Shown: piece after piece, positions 542-48,802 of the stretch
Layout of the letters: the number at the start of each line of letters is the position of its first letter
Numbering within the stretch: position 1 is the first letter of the stretch
DNA from: a virus
Lineage: Duplodnaviria; Heunggongvirae; Uroviricota; Caudoviricetes
Virus record (IMG/VR): IMGVR_UViG_2718218136_000008
Location: 1-48,802 of that record
Direction: 5' to 3' (one strand)
DNA length: 48,802 nucleotides
Translations under genes and position numbers: made by a program
The notes under the pieces: model-generated
Database searches by the model: none
Seen by the model: the letters and a program-made list of their open reading frames with translations, nothing else
Told to the model about the DNA's origin: nothing

Positions 542-1579
542 TTAACGCTTATCCGCCACCAGTTTGAGCGCGTGTTCCAGCACATTAATGTCTGCACCCG
601 CTTTATGGGCATTTTCACTTAAATAACGCCGCCACTGCCGCGCGCCAGGAATACCCTGGAACAAGCCCAACATATGCCGGGTAATATGGCCGAGATACGT
701 CCCCTGGCTGAGTTCACGCTCAATGTACGGATACATGGCGCGCACTACCGCCACCGGATCGGCATCGGTATCCGAGGAACCAAAGATCTCCCGGTCTACT
801 GCCGCCAGAATACCCGGATTCTGATACGCCTCGCGCCCGACCATCACGCCATCCATATGTTGCAGGTGTGCTTTGGCCTCTTCCAGCGACTTGATACCAC
901 CGTTAATCGACATTGTCAGATGCGGAAAGTCACGCTTCAGTTGATACACACGCGGATAATCGAGCGGCGGGATTTCACGGTTTTCTTTCGGGCTTAACCC
1001 CGAAAGCCAGGCTTTACGTGCGTGGATGATAAACATCTCACACTCGCCTTTGCCGGAAACAGTGTTGATGAAATCGCAGAGAAATTCATAGCTGTCCTGG
1101 TCATCGATGCCAATACGCGTTTTCACCGTCACTGGAATCGACACCACATCGCGCATCGCTTTCACACAGTCGGCAACCAGCTGCGCATTACCCATCAGAC
1201 ACGCACCAAACATGCCGTTCTGCACCCGGTCAGACGGGCAGCCGACATTCAGGTTGATCTCATCATATCCACGCGCTTCTGCCAGCTTCGCACACTGTGC
1301 CAGCGCCGCCGGATCGCTACCGCCGAGTTGCAACGCTACCGGATGTTCTTCTTCACTGTACGCCAGGTAATCACCTTTACCGTGAATAATCGCCCCTGTG
1401 GTCACCATTTCGGTATACAGCAACGTATTGCGGGAAAGCAGACGCAAGAAATAGCGGCAATGTCTGTCCGTCCAGTCGAGCATAGGAGCAATGCTAAACC
1501 GAGAACTCCAGTAAGCGCCAGTTTTTTCAGGCATCACGCTGGTTTGATTAGTTTTCTGTGTTTCAGGATTATCGTGCAT
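542..1579 (-). CDS. dusA: tRNA-dihydrouridine synthase A; first ~32 codons are supplied by the prophage
   Basis: 345-aa ORF with Dus-family sequence ([14 protein letters not shown]...NVGCPS...); attL core lies inside its 5' end. Confidence 0.9.
1476..1483. other. attL core TCGAGCAT (prophage/chromosome junction inside dusA)
   Basis: Identical 8-mer recurs at 47589..47596; flanks on both sides encode homologous but non-identical DusA N-termini. Confidence 0.6.
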
Positions 1580-1667: not shown

Positions 1668-2765
1668 ATGGCGTACTATAACATAGAGAAACGACTAAAA
1701 TCCGATGGCACACCACGCTATCGCTGTAATGTGATTATCAAAGAAAAAGGTGTTATCACTTACAGGGAAAGCAAAACATTCCCTAAACATGCTCATGCCA
1801 AAACATGGGGCGCACAGAAAGTGATGGAATTAGATCTATATGGCATTCCATCATCAAATGCTGTTGACGGACTTACAGTCCGTGACTTACTACACAAATA
1901 TTTAAATGACCCAAATGCCGGAGGTAAAGCAGGCCGTACTAAAAGATATGTGCTGGAACTGCTTATGGATAGTGACATCTCCGCGATCAAACTATCTGAA
2001 CTGACAGAAAATGACGTAATTGAACATTGCAGGCTAAGAAACAACGCTGGTGCAGGCCCAGCAACAGTCAGCCACGATGTTAGTTATCTTGGCAGTGTTC
2101 TGGATGCGGCAAAACCTGTATACGGAATCAATTACACATCAAACCCGGCGAAAAGCGCTCGTCCATATCTACTTAAACTCGGTTTGATTGGTAAATCAAA
2201 CCGTCGTAATCGTAGACCAGCATCTGATGAACTGAACATGCTCATTGAAGGCCTTCAACAACGATCTACTCATAAATGCTCAAAAATTCCGTTCGTTGAT
2301 ATCCTCAAATTTTCTGTGTGGTCCTGTATGCGAATCGGAGAAGTATGCCGGTTACGATGGGAAGATCTCGACCAGGAACAAAAATCTATACTAGTAAGAG
2401 ACAGGAAAGATCCACGTAAAAAGGAAGGCAACCATATGAAAGTTGCCTTGCTTGGGGAAGCCTGGGATATCGTCCAGCGACAACCCAAAAAATCAGAATT
2501 CATTTTTCCATATAACAGCACTTCTGTTACCGCAGGATTTCAGAGGGTAAGAAGCAAATTAGGTATTAAAGATCTGAGATACCATGATTTGCGTAGAGAA
2601 GGGGCAAGTCGCTTATTTGAGGCTGGTTTTAGTATTGAGGAAGTCGCTCAGGTTACAGGGCATCGTTCATTAAACGTGCTATGGCAGGTATATACCGAAC
2701 TGTATCCGAAATCTTTACATAATCGTTTTGAAGAACTCCAAAGGAGCAGAAATAAGACCTCTTGA
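1668..2765 (+). CDS. int: tyrosine-type integrase (dusA-targeting)
   Basis: 365-aa ORF with C-terminal tyrosine recombinase region (RYHDLRREGASR...HRSLNVLWQVY); GAGG RBS; adjacent to att site. Confidence 0.9.
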   Translation: MAYYNIEKRLKSDGTPRYRCNVIIKEKGVITYRESKTFPKHAHAKTWGAQKVMELDLYGIPSSNAVDGLTVRDLLHKYLNDPNAGGKAGRTKRYVLELLMDSDISAIKLSELTENDVIEHCRLRNNAGAGPATVSHDVSYLGSVLDAAKPVYGINYTSNPAKSARPYLLKLGLIGKSNRRNRRPASDELNMLIEGLQQRSTHKCSKIPFVDILKFSVWSCMRIGEVCRLRWEDLDQEQKSILVRDRKDPRKKEGNHMKVALLGEAWDIVQRQPKKSEFIFPYNSTSVTAGFQRVRSKLGIKDLRYHDLRREGASRLFEAGFSIEEVAQVTGHRSLNVLWQVYTELYPKSLHNRFEELQRSRNKTS

Positions 2766-3296: not shown

Positions 3297-3848
3297 ATGC
3301 ATGACAATATTTGGTTTACATATAAAGCACGTATCCAAGCGCACCATCGACTAGAATGGCTTGAAAAACACTCTCAATTTATCCTCGTTTGGTATGCTAT
3401 ATTGAGTGCGGTACTTTCAATTGTAACGTTGCGATTTCCAAAGGTTCTAGGAGATAATACAGATGTCGTTGCGGCGATACTTTCAGTGGCTCTACTGGGT
3501 ATTTCTCTGATCGTATCTAACCTAGATTTTCGTGGTCGAGCAATAGCCATGAGAAGGAATTATATTGCACTACAGCGACTCTATTTTGACATTACCACCA
3601 GTCAACAGTTATCTCTTGAACAGAAAGAAAAATATTTTAATTTGCTCAATGAGGTTGAGAATCACCGTGACATAGATGATAAAATTTCAAGGGTAACTCA
3701 AGTTGGACTTAAGACGAGGATCCCCACACAAAAAGAAAAAATAATTGTTATTTTATGGATATTACTTCGAATATTTATTACTGCCGCACTTTATATACTC
3801 CCATTAATATATCTTTGGATTGACTATGACTGCAAGCAGAATTTTTAA
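3297..3848 (+). CDS. small membrane protein, SLATT-like (N-terminal helix, two TM helices, helical region, C-terminal hydrophobic helix)
   Basis: 183-aa ORF, AAGGA RBS; hydrophobic segments FILVWYAILSAVLSIVTL, VVAAILSVALLGISLIVSNL, IIVILWILLRIFITAALYILPLIYLWI; 3' end overlaps the RT gene by 23 nt; low GC. Confidence 0.6.
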   Translation: MHDNIWFTYKARIQAHHRLEWLEKHSQFILVWYAILSAVLSIVTLRFPKVLGDNTDVVAAILSVALLGISLIVSNLDFRGRAIAMRRNYIALQRLYFDITTSQQLSLEQKEKYFNLLNEVENHRDIDDKISRVTQVGLKTRIPTQKEKIIVILWILLRIFITAALYILPLIYLWIDYDCKQNF

Positions 3849-5196
3849 AAAGTCATTCTCGAAAAAAAATCTTCTAAAAGTATACTCTGAAAAAATCAAA
3901 GAATCAGGAGCGATTGGCATAGATCGGATTCGCCCATCAAAACTTGATTTGACAATAAAAAATGAGATCACTTTCATTTTTGAAAAGGTTAATTCTGGCA
4001 ATTACAAATTTACAGCATATAAAGAAAAATTAATATCTAAAGGCGCTAACTCTACACCCAGACAGATTTCCATACCAACTGCTAGGGACAGAATTACTCT
4101 TAGAGCTCTCTGTGAATGCCTTACGGAAATATATCCTAAGTCCAGATTAAAACTACCACATACAGTAATTGACTCATTGAAAGAAGCATTAAACAACAGT
4201 CTATATGCTGAATATGCAAAAATAGATCTTAAAAGTTTCTATCCTTCAATTGAACATAAATTGATAATTAATGCAATAAAAAATAAAATTAGAAAAAAAG
4301 AAATTAGACAGTTAATAACATCATCATTAATCGTGCCTACTGTAAGTGGAACCACAGGAAGCAAAGGTATCCCTAATAATACCAGAGGAGTACCTCAGGG
4401 ATTAGCGATATCAAACATTTTAGCTGAAATATCACTATCTAATTTCGATGATGAAATCAATAAAATGCATGACATATGGTACATGCGATACGTTGATGAC
4501 ATTCTTATTTTAACACCAAAATATCAAGCAACAAAAATAGCTTCTCATATCATTGATAAGCTTCAATCATTAAATTTAAACCCACATCCATTAAATGAAG
4601 AGAACTCAAAATCCAAAGTAGGCAGCTTGGATGAAAGTTTCAACTTTTTGGGCTACCACATAAAAAATCGAGAATTATTGATAAAACATGAGAGCATTCT
4701 TAGATTTGAGTCATCCTTAGCAAAAATTTTTACTGCATATAGACACGCTCTACTACAAGCTAAAAATAAGCGCGATAAAGAACGAGCTGTTGCATATTGT
4801 CAGTGGAAACTAAATCTTAGAATTACGGGATGTGTGTTTGAAGGTAAACGATTGGGATGGGTATCGTACTTCTCACAAATAACGTCAACAGCTCAACTTC
4901 GAGCTGTTAATCATACGATCAATAATCTTATCCGCCGATTCGGCCTTTCATCAGAAATAAAACCAAAGTCTTTGATTAAAACTTTCTATGAACTCCGCAG
5001 GGGTAGAGCGGAGACTTTTAAATACATACCTAACTTTGACAATCTACATATATCTCAGAAACGAGAAATTGTTTCTATGTGGATAGGGAAAGAGAATGAA
5101 AAAAAACTTAGCAATAGTGAAATAGAGAGAAAATTTAAATTTAAAATTGCGAAATCAGTAAAAGAGCTTGAAGAGGACATTTCAGGGATATCATAG
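3826..5196 (+). CDS. reverse transcriptase (retron/UG-DRT-like prokaryotic RT)
   Basis: 456 aa from ATG 3826; RT motifs RQISIPTARDRITLRAL, DLKSFYPSI, GVPQGLAISNILAEISL, YMRYVDDILIL (YVDD), FNFLGYHI; ~180-aa C-terminal extension; low GC. Confidence 0.85.
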   Translation: MTASRIFKKSFSKKNLLKVYSEKIKESGAIGIDRIRPSKLDLTIKNEITFIFEKVNSGNYKFTAYKEKLISKGANSTPRQISIPTARDRITLRALCECLTEIYPKSRLKLPHTVIDSLKEALNNSLYAEYAKIDLKSFYPSIEHKLIINAIKNKIRKKEIRQLITSSLIVPTVSGTTGSKGIPNNTRGVPQGLAISNILAEISLSNFDDEINKMHDIWYMRYVDDILILTPKYQATKIASHIIDKLQSLNLNPHPLNEENSKSKVGSLDESFNFLGYHIKNRELLIKHESILRFESSLAKIFTAYRHALLQAKNKRDKERAVAYCQWKLNLRITGCVFEGKRLGWVSYFSQITSTAQLRAVNHTINNLIRRFGLSSEIKPKSLIKTFYELRRGRAETFKYIPNFDNLHISQKREIVSMWIGKENEKKLSNSEIERKFKFKIAKSVKELEEDISGIS

Positions 5197-5308: not shown

Positions 5309-5893
5309 TTACTCCATAACAGGGACCGCAGGCCACTCAATATCAGGTGCAGTTGATGTATCAACACGGTTCAGCAACACCCGATACTTCTTCCAGGCTT
5401 CCAGCAACGAGTTTTCTTCCTCCGTTGCGATCTCCAGATCTACAGCATCCTGAAGTGGCGCTATATGCTCACTGGCTACCTGCATCAGGCTGTTTTTTGT
5501 TTCTTCCGCCTCCCGGATCCGGAACAGTTTTTCTGCTTCCGTATCCTTCACCCAGGCTGTGCCGTTCCACTTCTGAAACTCCCCTTCCGGGGATAACCAG
5601 GTAACATTTTCCGGTAACGGACCGAGTTCAGAAATAAATAACGCGTCCCCTGACGCTACGTCATAAACCGTTTTACCCCGATGGTCTTCAACGAGATGCC
5701 ACGATGCCTCATCACTGTTGAAAACAGCCACAAAGCCAGCCGGAATATCTGGCGGTGCAATATAGGTACTGTTTGCTGGCAGACCTGTATGAGGCGGAAT
5801 ATATGCGTCACCTTCACCAATAAATTCATTAGTTCCGGTCAGCAGATTATAAATTTTTATGGTCCGTGGTTGTTCACTCATTCTGAATGCCAT
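5309..5893 (-). CDS. tfa: tail fiber assembly protein
   Basis: 194-aa [21 protein letters not shown]..., closely matches recalled lambda Tfa; TAATG overlap with stf stop. Confidence 0.9.
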
Positions 5894-43668: not shown

Positions 43669-44574
43669 CTATATTTCCAGACACCTGTTATCACTTAACC
43701 CATTACTGGCTTGCTGCCGTAGATATTCCCGTGGCGAGCGATAACCCAGTGCACTATGCGGATGCCATTCGTTATAATGCTCGAATGCCTCTGCAAGGTT
43801 CTTTGCTGCCGTTAACCCGTCTGGTTTGGGCATGACACTGATGTAGTCACGCTTTATCGTTTTCACGAAGCTCTCTGCTATGCCGTTACTCTCCGGACTC
43901 CGCACCGCCGTGTTCTTCGGTTCAAGCCCCAACATCCGGGCAAACTGCCGTGTTTCATTAGCCCGGTAGCATGAACCATTATCCGTCAGCCACTCTACTG
44001 GAGACGCCGGAAGCTCGTTGCCGAAACGGCGTTCCACCGCTCCCAGCATGACGTCCTGTACTGTTTCACTGTTGAAGCCGCCCGTAGTGACCGCCCAGTG
44101 CAGTGCCTCACGGTCACAGCAGTCCAGCGCGAACGTGACTCGCAGTTTTTCTCCGTTATCACAGCGGAACTCGAACCCGTCAGAGCACCATCGCTGATTA
44201 CTTTCTTTCACAGCCACTCTGCCGGTATGTGCCCGTTTCGATGGCGGTACAGCGGGTTTTCGCTCAAGCAACAGCGCATTCTGGCGCATGATCCGGTAAA
44301 TACGTTTGGCATTGATCGCAGGCATACCATCAAGTTCGGCCTGTCTGCGAAGCAGCGCCCATACCCGACGATAACCATATGTGGGCAGCTCTCCGATAAC
44401 ATGGTGTATACGGAGAAGCACATCCGTATCATCTGAGTGACGGCTGCGGCGACCATCTTTCCAGTCATCGGTTCGTCTGAGAATGACGTGCAACTGCGCA
44501 CGCGACACCCGGAGACAACGGCTGACTAAGCTTACTCCCCATCCCCGGGCAATAAGGGCGCGTGCGCTATCCAC
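43669..44574 (-). CDS. insD: IS2 transposase InsD (orfB)
   Basis: 301-aa ORF matching recalled IS2 InsD (…DDE integrase region). Confidence 0.9.
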
Positions 44575-44897
44575 TTTTTTGCACGCCCGTATTCAACGGC
44601 TTCTTTAAGGAGTTCATTTTCCATCGTTTTTTTGCCGAGCAGGCGCTGGAGTTCTTTAATCTGCTTCATGGCGGCAGCAAGTTCAGAGGCAGGAACGACC
44701 TGTTCTCCTGCGGCCACAGCAGTAAGACTTCCCTCCTGGTATTGCTTGCGCCAGAGAAATAACTGGCTGGCTGCCACACCGTGTTGCCGGGCAACAAGGG
44801 AGACTGTCATTCCCGGTTCAAAACTCTGCTGAACAATAGCGATCTTTTCCTGTGTAGTACGCCGTCTGCGTTTCTCCGGTCCTAAGACATCAATCAT
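44532..44897 (-). CDS. insC: IS2 InsC (orfA), HTH
   Basis: 121 aa from ATG 44897 ([26 protein letters not shown]...). Confidence 0.85.
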
Positions 44898-44988
44898 CTG
44901 CTCTCCAATGACTAGTCTAAAAACTAGTATTAAGACTATCACTTAAATAAGTGATATTGGTTGTCTGGAGATTCAGGGGGCCAGTCTA

Positions 44989-44993: not shown

Positions 44994-45194
44994 CGCTAAG
45001 GGGGCGCTATCCGGTGAATTTTCAGAAACTACGTTTATAAGCTGCCTGGAATGCTTTGGCGATGATGATTGCGATACCTGTGACGGGAGCGGACGTATTG
45101 AAATTAAAGTGCCAGTCACGTGGTCGACCATAAAATCTATCTGGGATAAAGGTATCGAGTATTTTGCAGCAAAACCATCACAAGAGGTGAAGTG

Positions 45195-45767
45195 ATGAAC
45201 AACTTAATGATCGACCTTGAGACGATGGGGAAAAATAAGGATGCACCGATCGTTTCCATTGGCGCGGTGTTCTTCACTCCAGAAACCGGAGACATCGGAC
45301 AAGAATTCTATACGGTTGTTAGCCTGGACAGTGCTATGAAGCTAGGAGCTACACCTGACGGCGATACCATCCTGTGGTGGTTGAAACAAAGCCCTGAAGC
45401 ACGAGCTGCAATCTGTATTGATGATACTTTGTCGATCAGCGATGCTCTCTCAGAACTAAATCATTTCATTAACCGGCACGCAGACAATACGAAATATTTA
45501 AAAGTCTGGGGTAACGGAGCCACCTTCGACAACGTAATTTTACGTGGAGCTTATGAGCGAGCAGGACAAATCTGCCCGTGGGCATACTGGAATGACCACG
45601 ATGTACGCACGATCGTTACGCTTGGGCGTTCCATCGGATTCGACCCCAAAATGGACATGCCTTTCGATGGCGAACGGCACAACGCCCTGGCTGATGCCCG
45701 TCATCAGGCAAAATATGTTTCCGCTATCTGGCAGAAATTAATTCCTGCCACCAGCACAGAATTATGA
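45195..45767 (+). CDS. DnaQ-like 3'-5' exonuclease (DEDD family)
   Basis: 190 aa from ATG 45195; motifs MIDLETMG, WGNGATFD, HNALADA. Confidence 0.8.
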   Translation: MNNLMIDLETMGKNKDAPIVSIGAVFFTPETGDIGQEFYTVVSLDSAMKLGATPDGDTILWWLKQSPEARAAICIDDTLSISDALSELNHFINRHADNTKYLKVWGNGATFDNVILRGAYERAGQICPWAYWNDHDVRTIVTLGRSIGFDPKMDMPFDGERHNALADARHQAKYVSAIWQKLIPATSTEL

Positions 45768-46087: not shown

Positions 46088-46114
46088 AAAAAACCCGCCT
46101 AAAGGCGGGTTTTC
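46088..46114. terminator. bidirectional intrinsic terminator
   Basis: AACCCGCC-TAAA-GGCGGGTT flanked by A6 upstream and T4 downstream (T6 on the minus strand). Confidence 0.55.
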
Positions 46115-46132: not shown

Positions 46133-46306
46133 TCATGCTGCTTTGCGACGACGAAGCTTACCCTGCTGCTCTTTACCAGAGACAGTAGCGTGAGTGAACG
46201 CATTAGGAGCAGCCTTCATCAGAACTTCAACAGCAGCACCCATACCTGCGAATGCTTTCATTGTGTCGAACTTAACCTGTGGCTTGGTTGCTTTTTGATC
46301 TTCCAT
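46133..46306 (-). CDS. small hypothetical protein (57 aa), third gene of the attR-proximal operon
   Basis: ATG 46306 with GGAG RBS; MEDQKATKPQVKFDTMKAFAGMGAAVEVLMKAAPNAFTHATVSGKEQQGKLRRRKAA; followed by the terminator; below the ORF-track size cut-off. Confidence 0.3.
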   Translation of the reverse strand: MEDQKATKPQVKFDTMKAFAGMGAAVEVLMKAAPNAFTHATVSGKEQQGKLRRRKAA

Positions 46307-46345
46307 AGAAAACTCCAGAAGCTATACCGAAAAAATTCCTGTTGT

Positions 46346-46765
46346 TTACTCATCATCAATAGATGATACGCAATATTTATTTTTAAATTTAAGGTTCTTT
46401 GGCGTAACTTCATCAGATATATCAAAACCGTCCAGAATTCTATTGAATGTAGCTTCTGGCATATCATCATGAACGGAAATCTCACCCGATCGCTGCTTTC
46501 TAACCATGTTATCCACTCGCCAAATTATAGCTTCAGCGTAAACAACATAACTTGGATGCTTGATAAAGCGATGATCACCAGAATTCAAGACGCAAGACGG
46601 ATCGTGGGGGACACCATCCTTGATACTAGAAATATTAACAACTAAAACACAATAACAATCGTTAACGGGGTAATAAACAGGATCATTACAAATCACATGA
46701 AGATGATTGCATGGCCCAGTTGGGGCAAGCACAGTTCCTTTCCTGTATGGCTGATAATCCGTCAT
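46346..46765 (-). CDS. hypothetical protein, candidate toxin/effector partner of the Panacea-like gene
   Basis: 139-aa ORF; start overlaps upstream gene stop (ATGA); no recognised motif; low GC. Confidence 0.5.
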   Translation of the reverse strand: MTDYQPYRKGTVLAPTGPCNHLHVICNDPVYYPVNDCYCVLVVNISSIKDGVPHDPSCVLNSGDHRFIKHPSYVVYAEAIIWRVDNMVRKQRSGEISVHDDMPEATFNRILDGFDISDEVTPKNLKFKNKYCVSSIDDE

Positions 46766-47334
46766 GATAATTGCAAAGAAAATTCCTTAAGTTTCTGAGA
46801 TTCTTCCATTTTGCCAATTATACGATTAGCCTCATCCTCGCTTTTACCCTCACTGATCAGCATTTCTTTCAGGTCTATAGGCTTACGAGAATTGCCAGGA
46901 TTGTGCCACTCTGGACAAACGCTTTCTAAATGCGTCATGTTTGCGAGATCAAATCGGTTCATATGCCCATACAGAGAATAGATTTCATCTAAAATCCGGA
47001 TATCTGCACGGCTCAACTCATCAAAGACCTCGTCTGCATCCATTTCCCTCGGATCTGAACGCAACAACACATCATGCCCGTTCGTCTCTATCAAGTTGTA
47101 CCAGTAGTCACCAATGCCTTCAGCCTTACCACGAATCAAGTTCAGCGTATTCGACATGACTGGACCAAATTTCATAGAGTAAAGGCTATCTTCGCCGATC
47201 ATCCTGCCATGCTTCAAAATCGACTTGCGGTTAGACAGATAGAGCAGCTTCATCAATTTCAGATATGCCATGCGCCCACCTCGCTTAAGAAGTAGGTATG
47301 CAGCCATTTGAGCTACTTTTTCTTCGCAAAACAT
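46762..47334 (-). CDS. Panacea-domain (DUF4065)-like protein, candidate antitoxin
   Basis: 190-aa ORF with KLMKLLYLSNR...FGPV pattern recalled for Panacea/SocA-like proteins; GAGG RBS; low GC. Confidence 0.5.
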   Translation of the reverse strand: MFCEEKVAQMAAYLLLKRGGRMAYLKLMKLLYLSNRKSILKHGRMIGEDSLYSMKFGPVMSNTLNLIRGKAEGIGDYWYNLIETNGHDVLLRSDPREMDADEVFDELSRADIRILDEIYSLYGHMNRFDLANMTHLESVCPEWHNPGNSRKPIDLKEMLISEGKSEDEANRIIGKMEESQKLKEFSLQLS

Positions 47335-47588
47335 ATAAGAAACCTCAAAGATAGTGAACTTTGTAATTATTCTCGATACTTCATGGGTTGCTTCATCACC
47401 AACATGAGCTTCTTATGGTGTGCCCACTTAGGCCTAAGCAACTAGTTACCTTGTTTGTCAAGTTTATAGCTGGCTTTAATCATGGTCAATTGAAGTGATG
47501 AGCAAATGATGCTTTCTAAGAATAACAGGTTCCCAATAGGCTCCCACAAAGTGTATAACTAGTTGTTTTTCAAAAACGGTACATCCTA

Positions 47589-47596
47589 TCGAGCAT
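47589..47596. other. attR core TCGAGCAT
   Basis: Identical to 1476..1483. Confidence 0.6.
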
Positions 47597-47692
47597 TGGT
47601 GCAACGCTAAACCGACCACTCCAGTGAACGTCAGTTTTTTCAGGCATTGCGCTGGTTTGGTTGATTTTTTGCATTTCAGAATTACCGTGCAT
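47589..47692 (-). pseudogene. dusA: displaced native 5' end of dusA
   Basis: Minus-strand reading from ATG 47692 encodes MHGNSEMQKINQTSAMPEKTDVHWSGRFSVAPMLD then diverges at the core. Confidence 0.65.
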
Positions 47693-47989
47693 TTTCAAAT
47701 GTAGAGATTATTTTATCGATATATCATTGGGTTATGTTATTCAGCATCACTGTTCAGGAGGCTCAATAGCGGGGTACTATACCATAACAACAGGAAGCGC
47801 CTGTCTCATTGCAAAAGAAAATTGAGATCAAATCAAGGCATGAAGCTCTCACGAAGTGATGGAAATAATCTTATTAGCCGTTAGCCTTGTTAAGGACAAT
47901 GATAAACAATCCAGGTTCGACGATAAATAAAAAATCACACATTAAACTCCGGTGATATCTCTTCCTGCTAATGGCACTGATAGAAGAAA

Positions 47990-48055: not shown

Positions 48056-48802
48056 TTATTTCGCCGATTTAACCCCGAATAAATCATAAATTAAATTAGA
48101 AGTATCTGTAAGTATTTTAATCTTTTCCTTTGAGTTTGGGTCAAACGACTTAGCAAAGTCAATTAATTTCGGTGCAGCATCTCGCATTTTGCTTAAAATA
48201 TCAGGTTCGAGCTTTCCTTCATTCACCAGAAGTGACATTTTATCCAGATAGTCATCAAATTTCATCCCCCCCCGGTCCGCCAGATGCTTCATCTCTCCCA
48301 GGTACTTCTTCATATCACGTTGAGATAATTCTTCAAACTGAGCTGTCAGATAGTTCTCATTATATTCATTAATATTCACTTTTTCTGCTCCGGCTAAATC
48401 TGTGTAGGCACTAGAATATGAAAGTGAAATTAACAGCGAAGCAAATAATTTTAAGCTGTTGTCATCATGTTCCTGGCAGGCATTAACAAACGTTAAAAAA
48501 CCAGAACCTATTGCTTGAAAATGTATATTCGCTAAAGGTTCATTATCCTTAGATTCCTCATAAAATAGCTGAACCGTGGAGGGAAGGCCATTCTTAGTTT
48601 CTACATCAAAAGTACATCGTTCAATGGGAGTCGCATCTTTATTATCCCCAGGATTACATATACTATTAATCGCGAAATGAAAAATAGCCCGGTCAACAAC
48701 TGATGCAATAAAGTCACGATCGTTTAAATCCTCATCAGTGCAATCGTCAATATACTTATTGACCCACACTTTGAGATTAGTTATTTGCTCAATTAAAAAC
48801 AC
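48056..48802 (-). CDS. yjbM: YjbM-like chromosomal protein (5' end beyond window)
   Basis: 248-aa ORF open to the window edge; located where yjbM neighbours dusA in E. coli. Confidence 0.6.
   Translation of the reverse strand: MFLIEQITNLKVWVNKYIDDCTDEDLNDRDFIASVVDRAIFHFAINSICNPGDNKDATPIERCTFDVETKNGLPSTVQLFYEESKDNEPLANIHFQAIGSGFLTFVNACQEHDDNSLKLFASLLISLSYSSAYTDLAGAEKVNINEYNENYLTAQFEELSQRDMKKYLGEMKHLADRGGMKFDDYLDKMSLLVNEGKLEPDILSKMRDAAPKLIDFAKSFDPNSKEKIKILTDTSNLIYDLFGVKSAK

Follow-up and report, generated by a model that had tools for sequence, protein, structure and literature searches.

The window considered here, the 48,802 nucleotides (nt) of IMG/VR virus record IMGVR_UViG_2718218136_000008, is an Escherichia coli lambdoid prophage inserted in the 5' end of dusA. 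Next to its attR end it carries two genes, panA and panT, which we consider likely to encode a type II toxin–antitoxin (TA) pair, where PanA would bind and inhibit PanT, and free PanT would block translation. The basis of this reading is homology to one tested relative and a conserved architecture; the module is a genuine and fairly ordinary accessory one, from a TA family that has been described and tested in Pseudomonas. Both genes are on the minus strand. The first, panA (46762-47334, 190 amino acids (aa)), has GAGG 9 nt 5' of its ATG, and its downstream partner panT (46346-46765, 139 aa) begins within it: the stop of panA and the start of panT share the tetranucleotide ATGA at 46762-46765 (…CAATTATCATGACGG…; …CAA TTA TCA TGA CGG…), an overlap read off the sequence that points to translational coupling.

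PanA is a Panacea protein, as a sequence-only reading of the window had supposed. The hidden Markov model search which that reading proposed matched Pfam PF13274 (SocA_Panacea) to residues 27-137, with an E-value of 1.8e-18 and a score of 67.9 bits (gathering cutoff 25.7). The same domain is carried by 120 of 120 PanA homologues among those listed, and RefSeq names the protein 'Panacea domain-containing protein' (WP_000458583.1). Outside the Pfam match, the AlphaFold2 model (predicted local distance difference test score 92.6) places helices at residues 155-161 and 166-189, that is, a C-terminal helical extension of about residues 155-189. A stand-alone Panacea domain can neutralize directly, and other PanA proteins use appended elements (Ernits et al., 2023, PMC10440598); the conserved C-terminal helices of PanA are a candidate toxin contact.

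The nature of PanT is suggested by its family. Partners of PanA have been sorted into clusters, one of which, T6, includes a Pseudomonas moraviensis toxin that HHpred tied to EndoA/PemK/MazF (Kurata et al., 2022, PNAS, PMC8832971). This protein proved toxic to E. coli; its own PanA relieved the toxicity and co-purified with it, and the incorporation of 35S-methionine was specifically inhibited by the toxin (PMC8832971). In the part of Dataset S1 of that work that was available, T6 pairs include one with an overlap of −4 in Pantoea septica LMG 5345 and one with an overlap of −1 in 'Yersiniaceae bacterium 2016Iso4'. A genome scan found homologues of the 139-aa protein in the former (56% identity) and in Chimaeribacter '2016-Iso4' (55%), at loci L008 and L007 respectively, with panAT overlaps equal to those of the two T6 rows. 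A PanA of P. fluorescens (P0368) has MIFSEQKVAQ as its first residues, as reported for the PanA of P. moraviensis, and falls in one 90% cluster with WP_092267218.1 of P. reinekei, listed under T6 in that part of the dataset; the next gene downstream, of 133 aa and with a −1 overlap, encodes a protein 37% identical to the 139-aa PanT (E 2e-30). As the available rows of Dataset S1 (PMC8832971) place E. coli in T1 and T3 alone, the prophage panAT would be an unlisted T6 member. Because it belongs to T6, a family with one toxin validated as type II (PMC8832971), the 139-aa protein is very probably the cognate toxin of PanA. This upholds its earlier designation as a toxin partner; the accompanying statement that it matches nothing and would be an uncharacterized toxin has to be dropped, as the family counts 2676 representatives at 50% identity, and it has been catalogued and tested once.

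Sharing PF13274 with SocA, PanA might act indirectly, as a protease adaptor handing the toxin to ClpXP in what would be a type VI system. We find this very improbable. Against the NCBIfam SocA equivalog NF047745, PanA scores 13.5 bits, far below the cutoff of 190, while its partner is MazF-like in predicted fold and unrelated to SocB, so that SocA orthology was rejected. Moreover, a stable PanA:PanT complex was recovered in pull-downs of the T6 relative, for which the authors favour a type II mode (PMC8832971).

Conservation of the two genes as a unit is consistent with the type II reading. They stay together in Gamma-, Beta- and Alphaproteobacteria, and at all 24 toxin-found loci with enough upstream DNA (two others, L017 and L027, were too short and were left out) the gene immediately upstream, in the same orientation, is a panA homologue. 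What is found there is a two-gene locus as Kurata et al. define it by their FlaGs criteria, namely a gap of at most 100 nt and a partner that is conserved in different species. Homologous loci likewise show panA-panT overlaps, of −4 or −1, and the identities of PanA and PanT fall in parallel from locus to locus. Non-synonymous divergence (dN) from the Kosakonia and Pluralibacter orthologues amounts to 0.08-0.11 for both genes, with synonymous sites saturated, so that dN/dS can only be bounded. Judged by their sequences, panA and panT are more than chance open reading frames (ORFs).

In public annotation the overlap of the two genes is concealed. The RefSeq toxin WP_014640052.1, of 128 aa, begins 11 codons late (46733-46765 being omitted), which hides the ATGA shared with panA. 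The N-terminus MTxYxPYRKGT is kept in PanT homologues, and its conservation supports the 139-aa form as well as the coupling of the two genes.

How PanT would act is a more delicate matter. Structure prediction, proposed in the sequence-only reading as a check on the 139-aa protein, models it as a MazF/Kid/CcdB-like (SH3-like) β-barrel with C-terminal helices. The catalytic centre of MazF combines an Arg, in the β1-β2 loop or in β2, with a Thr or Ser, and carries out metal-independent, sequence-specific cleavage of RNA; a long β1-β2 loop covers the active site. The near-invariant residues of PanT differ from these catalytic residues. Across 127 diverse family representatives, with a median identity of 33% to the query, H21, D55, C58, H65 and Y76 are conserved at 98-99% and S72 at 94%, and all six are kept in the Pseudomonas homologue. 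In a non-significant collinear alignment with MazF, H21 of PanT falls beside H28/R29 of MazF and S46/S47 beside T51/T52. Membership of PemK/MazF at the level of sequence was rejected: Pfam gave no match, PF02452 (PemK_toxin) included, on PanT or on any of 41 homologues when E-values up to 10 were admitted, a PanT profile search of PDB sequences found no MazF, and hhalign of PanT with MazF sequences gave a probability below 1%. Since the catalytic Arg and Thr of MazF are not evidently conserved in PanT, it is from the fold alone that we infer a ribonuclease (RNase).

The set H21/D55/C58/H65/S72/Y76 is more suggestive of metal binding or of Cys/His catalysis than of the MazF centre. In the model of PanT, strands 10-16 and 19-25 are joined by a tight β1-β2 turn, which would leave no space for the long loop of MazF, and MazF-family profiles have no significant alignment to the protein. 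These conserved residues and this tight turn make a different active centre on a MazF scaffold a live alternative, although we hold it to be doubtful on balance. The TA pair would then be the same, with PanT no MazF-type endoribonuclease: H21-D55-C58-H65 would bind a metal or act as a catalytic Cys/His centre, and translation would be blocked by other chemistry, for example by modifying or cleaving tRNA, rRNA or a translation factor. A more daring combination, in which T6 PanT uses the MazF scaffold with a His/Asp/Cys/His site (metal-dependent or with a Cys nucleophile) for a chemistry new to the fold, and the prophage copy serves abortive infection with PanA sensing the phage, seems to us improbable.

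In the type II reading, then, PanA would be produced first from a common mRNA, the translation of panT being coupled to it via ATGA. PanT, with its predicted MazF fold, would arrest growth through a block of translation, probably by cleaving RNA as MazF does, with other residues (H21/D55/C58/H65) in charge of the chemistry. PanA would neutralize it through a direct protein complex, touching the toxin with its C-terminal helices or with the Panacea core. Transcription of panAT in the lysogen could come from a promoter of the cassette, from dusA read-through at attR, or from both, and the benefit might be prophage stabilization, defence of the abortive-infection type, or both.

Several points weigh against this scheme. 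No sequence relation of PanT to MazF/PemK was detected by Pfam, by the PDB profile search or by hhalign (below 1%), and the word RNase derives from the modelled fold. The behaviour of Panacea pairs is uneven: in the study that validated the T6 toxin, eight PanTs showed no toxicity in E. coli, and in five cases the cognate PanA brought no rescue (PMC8832971). The link to T6 and to its tested toxin, WP_083201923.1 of P. moraviensis, is an indirect one, by way of T6-listed genomes and the P. reinekei/P. fluorescens relative, and the identity of the E. coli PanT to the Pseudomonas relative with which it was compared is only about 37%. To this must be added that promoter-like sites in the region are not more numerous than expected from shuffling, and that no defence model of PADLOC-DB v2 matched the 190-, 139- or 57-aa proteins at E up to 1.

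The 57-aa protein just mentioned is the product of a third ORF (46133-46306, minus strand, with GGAG 7-10 nt 5' of its ATG), which the sequence-only reading had united with the two others in a low-GC, three-gene operon at the attR end. Its observations were accurate as regards the three ORFs, the ATGA overlap, the ribosome-binding site of the 57-aa gene and the terminator, and also as regards low GC content and position, given the GC of 0.404 against 0.52 and the duplication of dusA at attL and attR; it is the three-gene unit that does not stand. Similarity to the loci of O157:H7 NE122 and of phage mEp460 breaks at 46319/46320 and returns at 47528, setting off a swappable cargo cassette (46320-47527) made of panAT and a 193-bp upstream region, with a GC content of 0.404 where the prophage interior has about 0.52. 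Both relatives have the prtN-like and 57-aa genes at 98% identity, and other cargo in the position of panAT. Among complete E. coli genomes, panAT is present in 205 of 5426 (about 4%), always on the chromosome, and the prtN-57-aa backbone is present in 549 of the same 5426, 2.7 times as often. Beside panAT, the 57-aa gene was found at none of the 24 other loci checked. Cassette edges, loci and genome counts together define the unit as the two-gene cassette 46320-47527. A three-gene operon as the functional unit was rejected on these grounds, and the 57-aa gene is, by sequence comparison, a neighbour from the phage backbone rather than a part of the TA module.

The proximity of this neighbour deserves comment all the same. 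Lying on the strand of panT, it begins only 39 nt beyond the end of that gene and shares a terminal hairpin with it, and as no terminator was detected between the two genes, it may be co-transcribed with panT. It encodes a basic protein (pI 10.2) that belongs to phrog_2741, of unknown function. A true three-gene system, with this protein as a required regulator or chaperone, would account for such an arrangement; however, we give it hardly any credence in view of the place of the gene outside the cassette boundary, its pairing with other cargo in mEp460 and O157:H7, its higher frequency in E. coli and its absence beside panAT at 24 of 24 loci. The hairpin in question, an intrinsic terminator at 46089-46114 (minus strand, 11-bp stem with 6 GC pairs, T-run) 3' of the 57-aa gene, sits between that gene and the convergent prtN-like gene on the plus strand, and ends both. 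A/T runs flank it on both sides, so that it can terminate in both directions.

As for the alternative cargo, it is an approximately 800-bp cassette with a 177-aa gene (WP_000956557.1 / mEp460_023), located at 3727-4260 of locus L031 (O157:H7) and 3504-4037 of locus L002 (mEp460), in the slot that corresponds to 46320-47527 of the window. Its protein had no Pfam or PADLOC match.

Signals for expression of panAT are faint. A consensus scan proposed a weak candidate sigma-70 promoter within the cassette, TTGACC-17-TAAACT (47461-47489, minus strand, 9/12). A second weak promoter-like site (47893-47865) lies on the upstream side of the dusA remnant, and since no terminator was detected from there to panA, read-through from the host dusA promoter into panA may occur. 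Upstream of panA, the search for operator-like inverted repeats yielded short, unconvincing matches only, and Rfam found no structured RNA at gathering threshold between 46 and 48 kb.

A role for panAT in defence is plausible, with prophage stabilization or addiction equally possible. Many TA systems defend against phages. The cassette is a low-GC, exchangeable cargo directly beside attR, and the opposite end of the prophage holds, adjoining int, a SLATT protein paired with a DRT-type reverse transcriptase; one may imagine panAT as primarily an abortive-infection system, PanA being the sensor and PanT the effector, rather than a mere addiction module. We see this as a serious possibility, yet one that falls short of an even chance: none of the three proteins had a match in PADLOC-DB v2, no published phage-challenge data were found for T6, nor any later mechanistic or phage-defence work in the literature, and the position of panAT fits prophage stabilization or selfish persistence just as well. 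The reverse-transcriptase locus itself, an overlapping gene pair of GC 0.34 at the attL/integrase end (3297-5196, plus strand), encodes a SLATT_5 protein with two transmembrane segments (PF18160, E 1e-28; PADLOC 'RTasSLATT', E 1.5e-56) and a reverse transcriptase (RVT_1; PADLOC RT_UG17, E 1e-158), and looks like a DRT-type candidate defence system. In P. fluorescens, the panAT pair (L029, 4174-5211) lies about 0.7 kb upstream of an RVT_1 reverse-transcriptase gene, a second co-location of the panAT family with a gene of this kind.

The limits of the prophage are well marked. An intact dusA (542-1579, minus strand) is followed by a tyrosine integrase gene (1668-2765, plus strand), and some 150 nt of the 5' region of dusA are duplicated, at about 1470-1600 (attL) and about 47580-47700 (attR). 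The latter copy, a displaced 5' remnant of dusA on the minus strand that aligns with the attL region, is the junction of prophage and chromosome, annotated in RefSeq genomes as a partial tRNA-dihydrouridine synthase pseudogene. With this placement, some 250 nt separate the start of panA from the junction, and panA and panT are the last prophage genes on that side. Just beyond attR is a chromosomal DUF2713 gene (48056-48802, minus strand), an ORF that leaves the end of the window; of four RefSeq loci inspected, three (L001, L032 and L033) have it annotated as frameshifted, and O157:H7 NE122 has it intact. Inside the prophage, an IS3-family (IS2-like) insertion sequence (43669-44942, minus strand; 136-aa orfA and 301-aa orfB) is inserted upstream of a 3'-5' exonuclease gene (45192-45767) and is absent in strain CUVET18-1475, whose locus is otherwise identical. 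At gathering threshold, Rfam matched the window only once, with IS009 (RF02111, 224.6 bits) at 5352-5550 on the minus strand, within the region of a tail-fibre-assembly gene (5309-5893).

Current understanding is not overturned by these observations, as the T6 family had been described, with its TA behaviour, in 2022. They do name a testable function for two genes that bear a hypothetical or mere domain label and are carried by about 4% of complete E. coli genomes, correct the start codon of panT in public annotation, and identify the slot beside attR of dusA-integrating lambdoid prophages as a site of cargo exchange. They also draw attention to the fact that the widespread T6 toxins have a MazF-like predicted fold, yet different, strongly conserved polar residues.

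Set against known systems, the cassette first resembles the moron and defence cargo at the ends of lambdoid prophages: the same slot, from the 57-aa gene to attP/attR, takes alternative low-GC cassettes in mEp460 and O157:H7, where the cargo is a 177-aa protein with no family match, whereas here it is a TA pair. With SocAB of Caulobacter, a type VI system, it has PF13274 in common through SocA; by contrast, PanT is unrelated to SocB, PanA falls outside the SocA equivalog, and the mode to be expected is direct binding rather than ClpXP delivery. Compared with MazEF and Kis-Kid (PemIK), PanT has no detectable similarity to PF02452-type toxins, shows the polar residues H, D, C and H in place of the Arg/Thr centre, and has about 40 extra helical residues at its C-terminus, while the antitoxin is a Panacea protein with no evident DNA-binding domain instead of a DNA-binding one of the AbrB/MazE type. 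The nearest counterpart is the T6 PanAT of Pseudomonas, to which E. coli PanA is about 41-43% identical: the P. moraviensis pair is listed as 'NotPhage' in the available part of the published data (PMC8832971), whereas the E. coli copy resides in a lambdoid prophage at attR(dusA).
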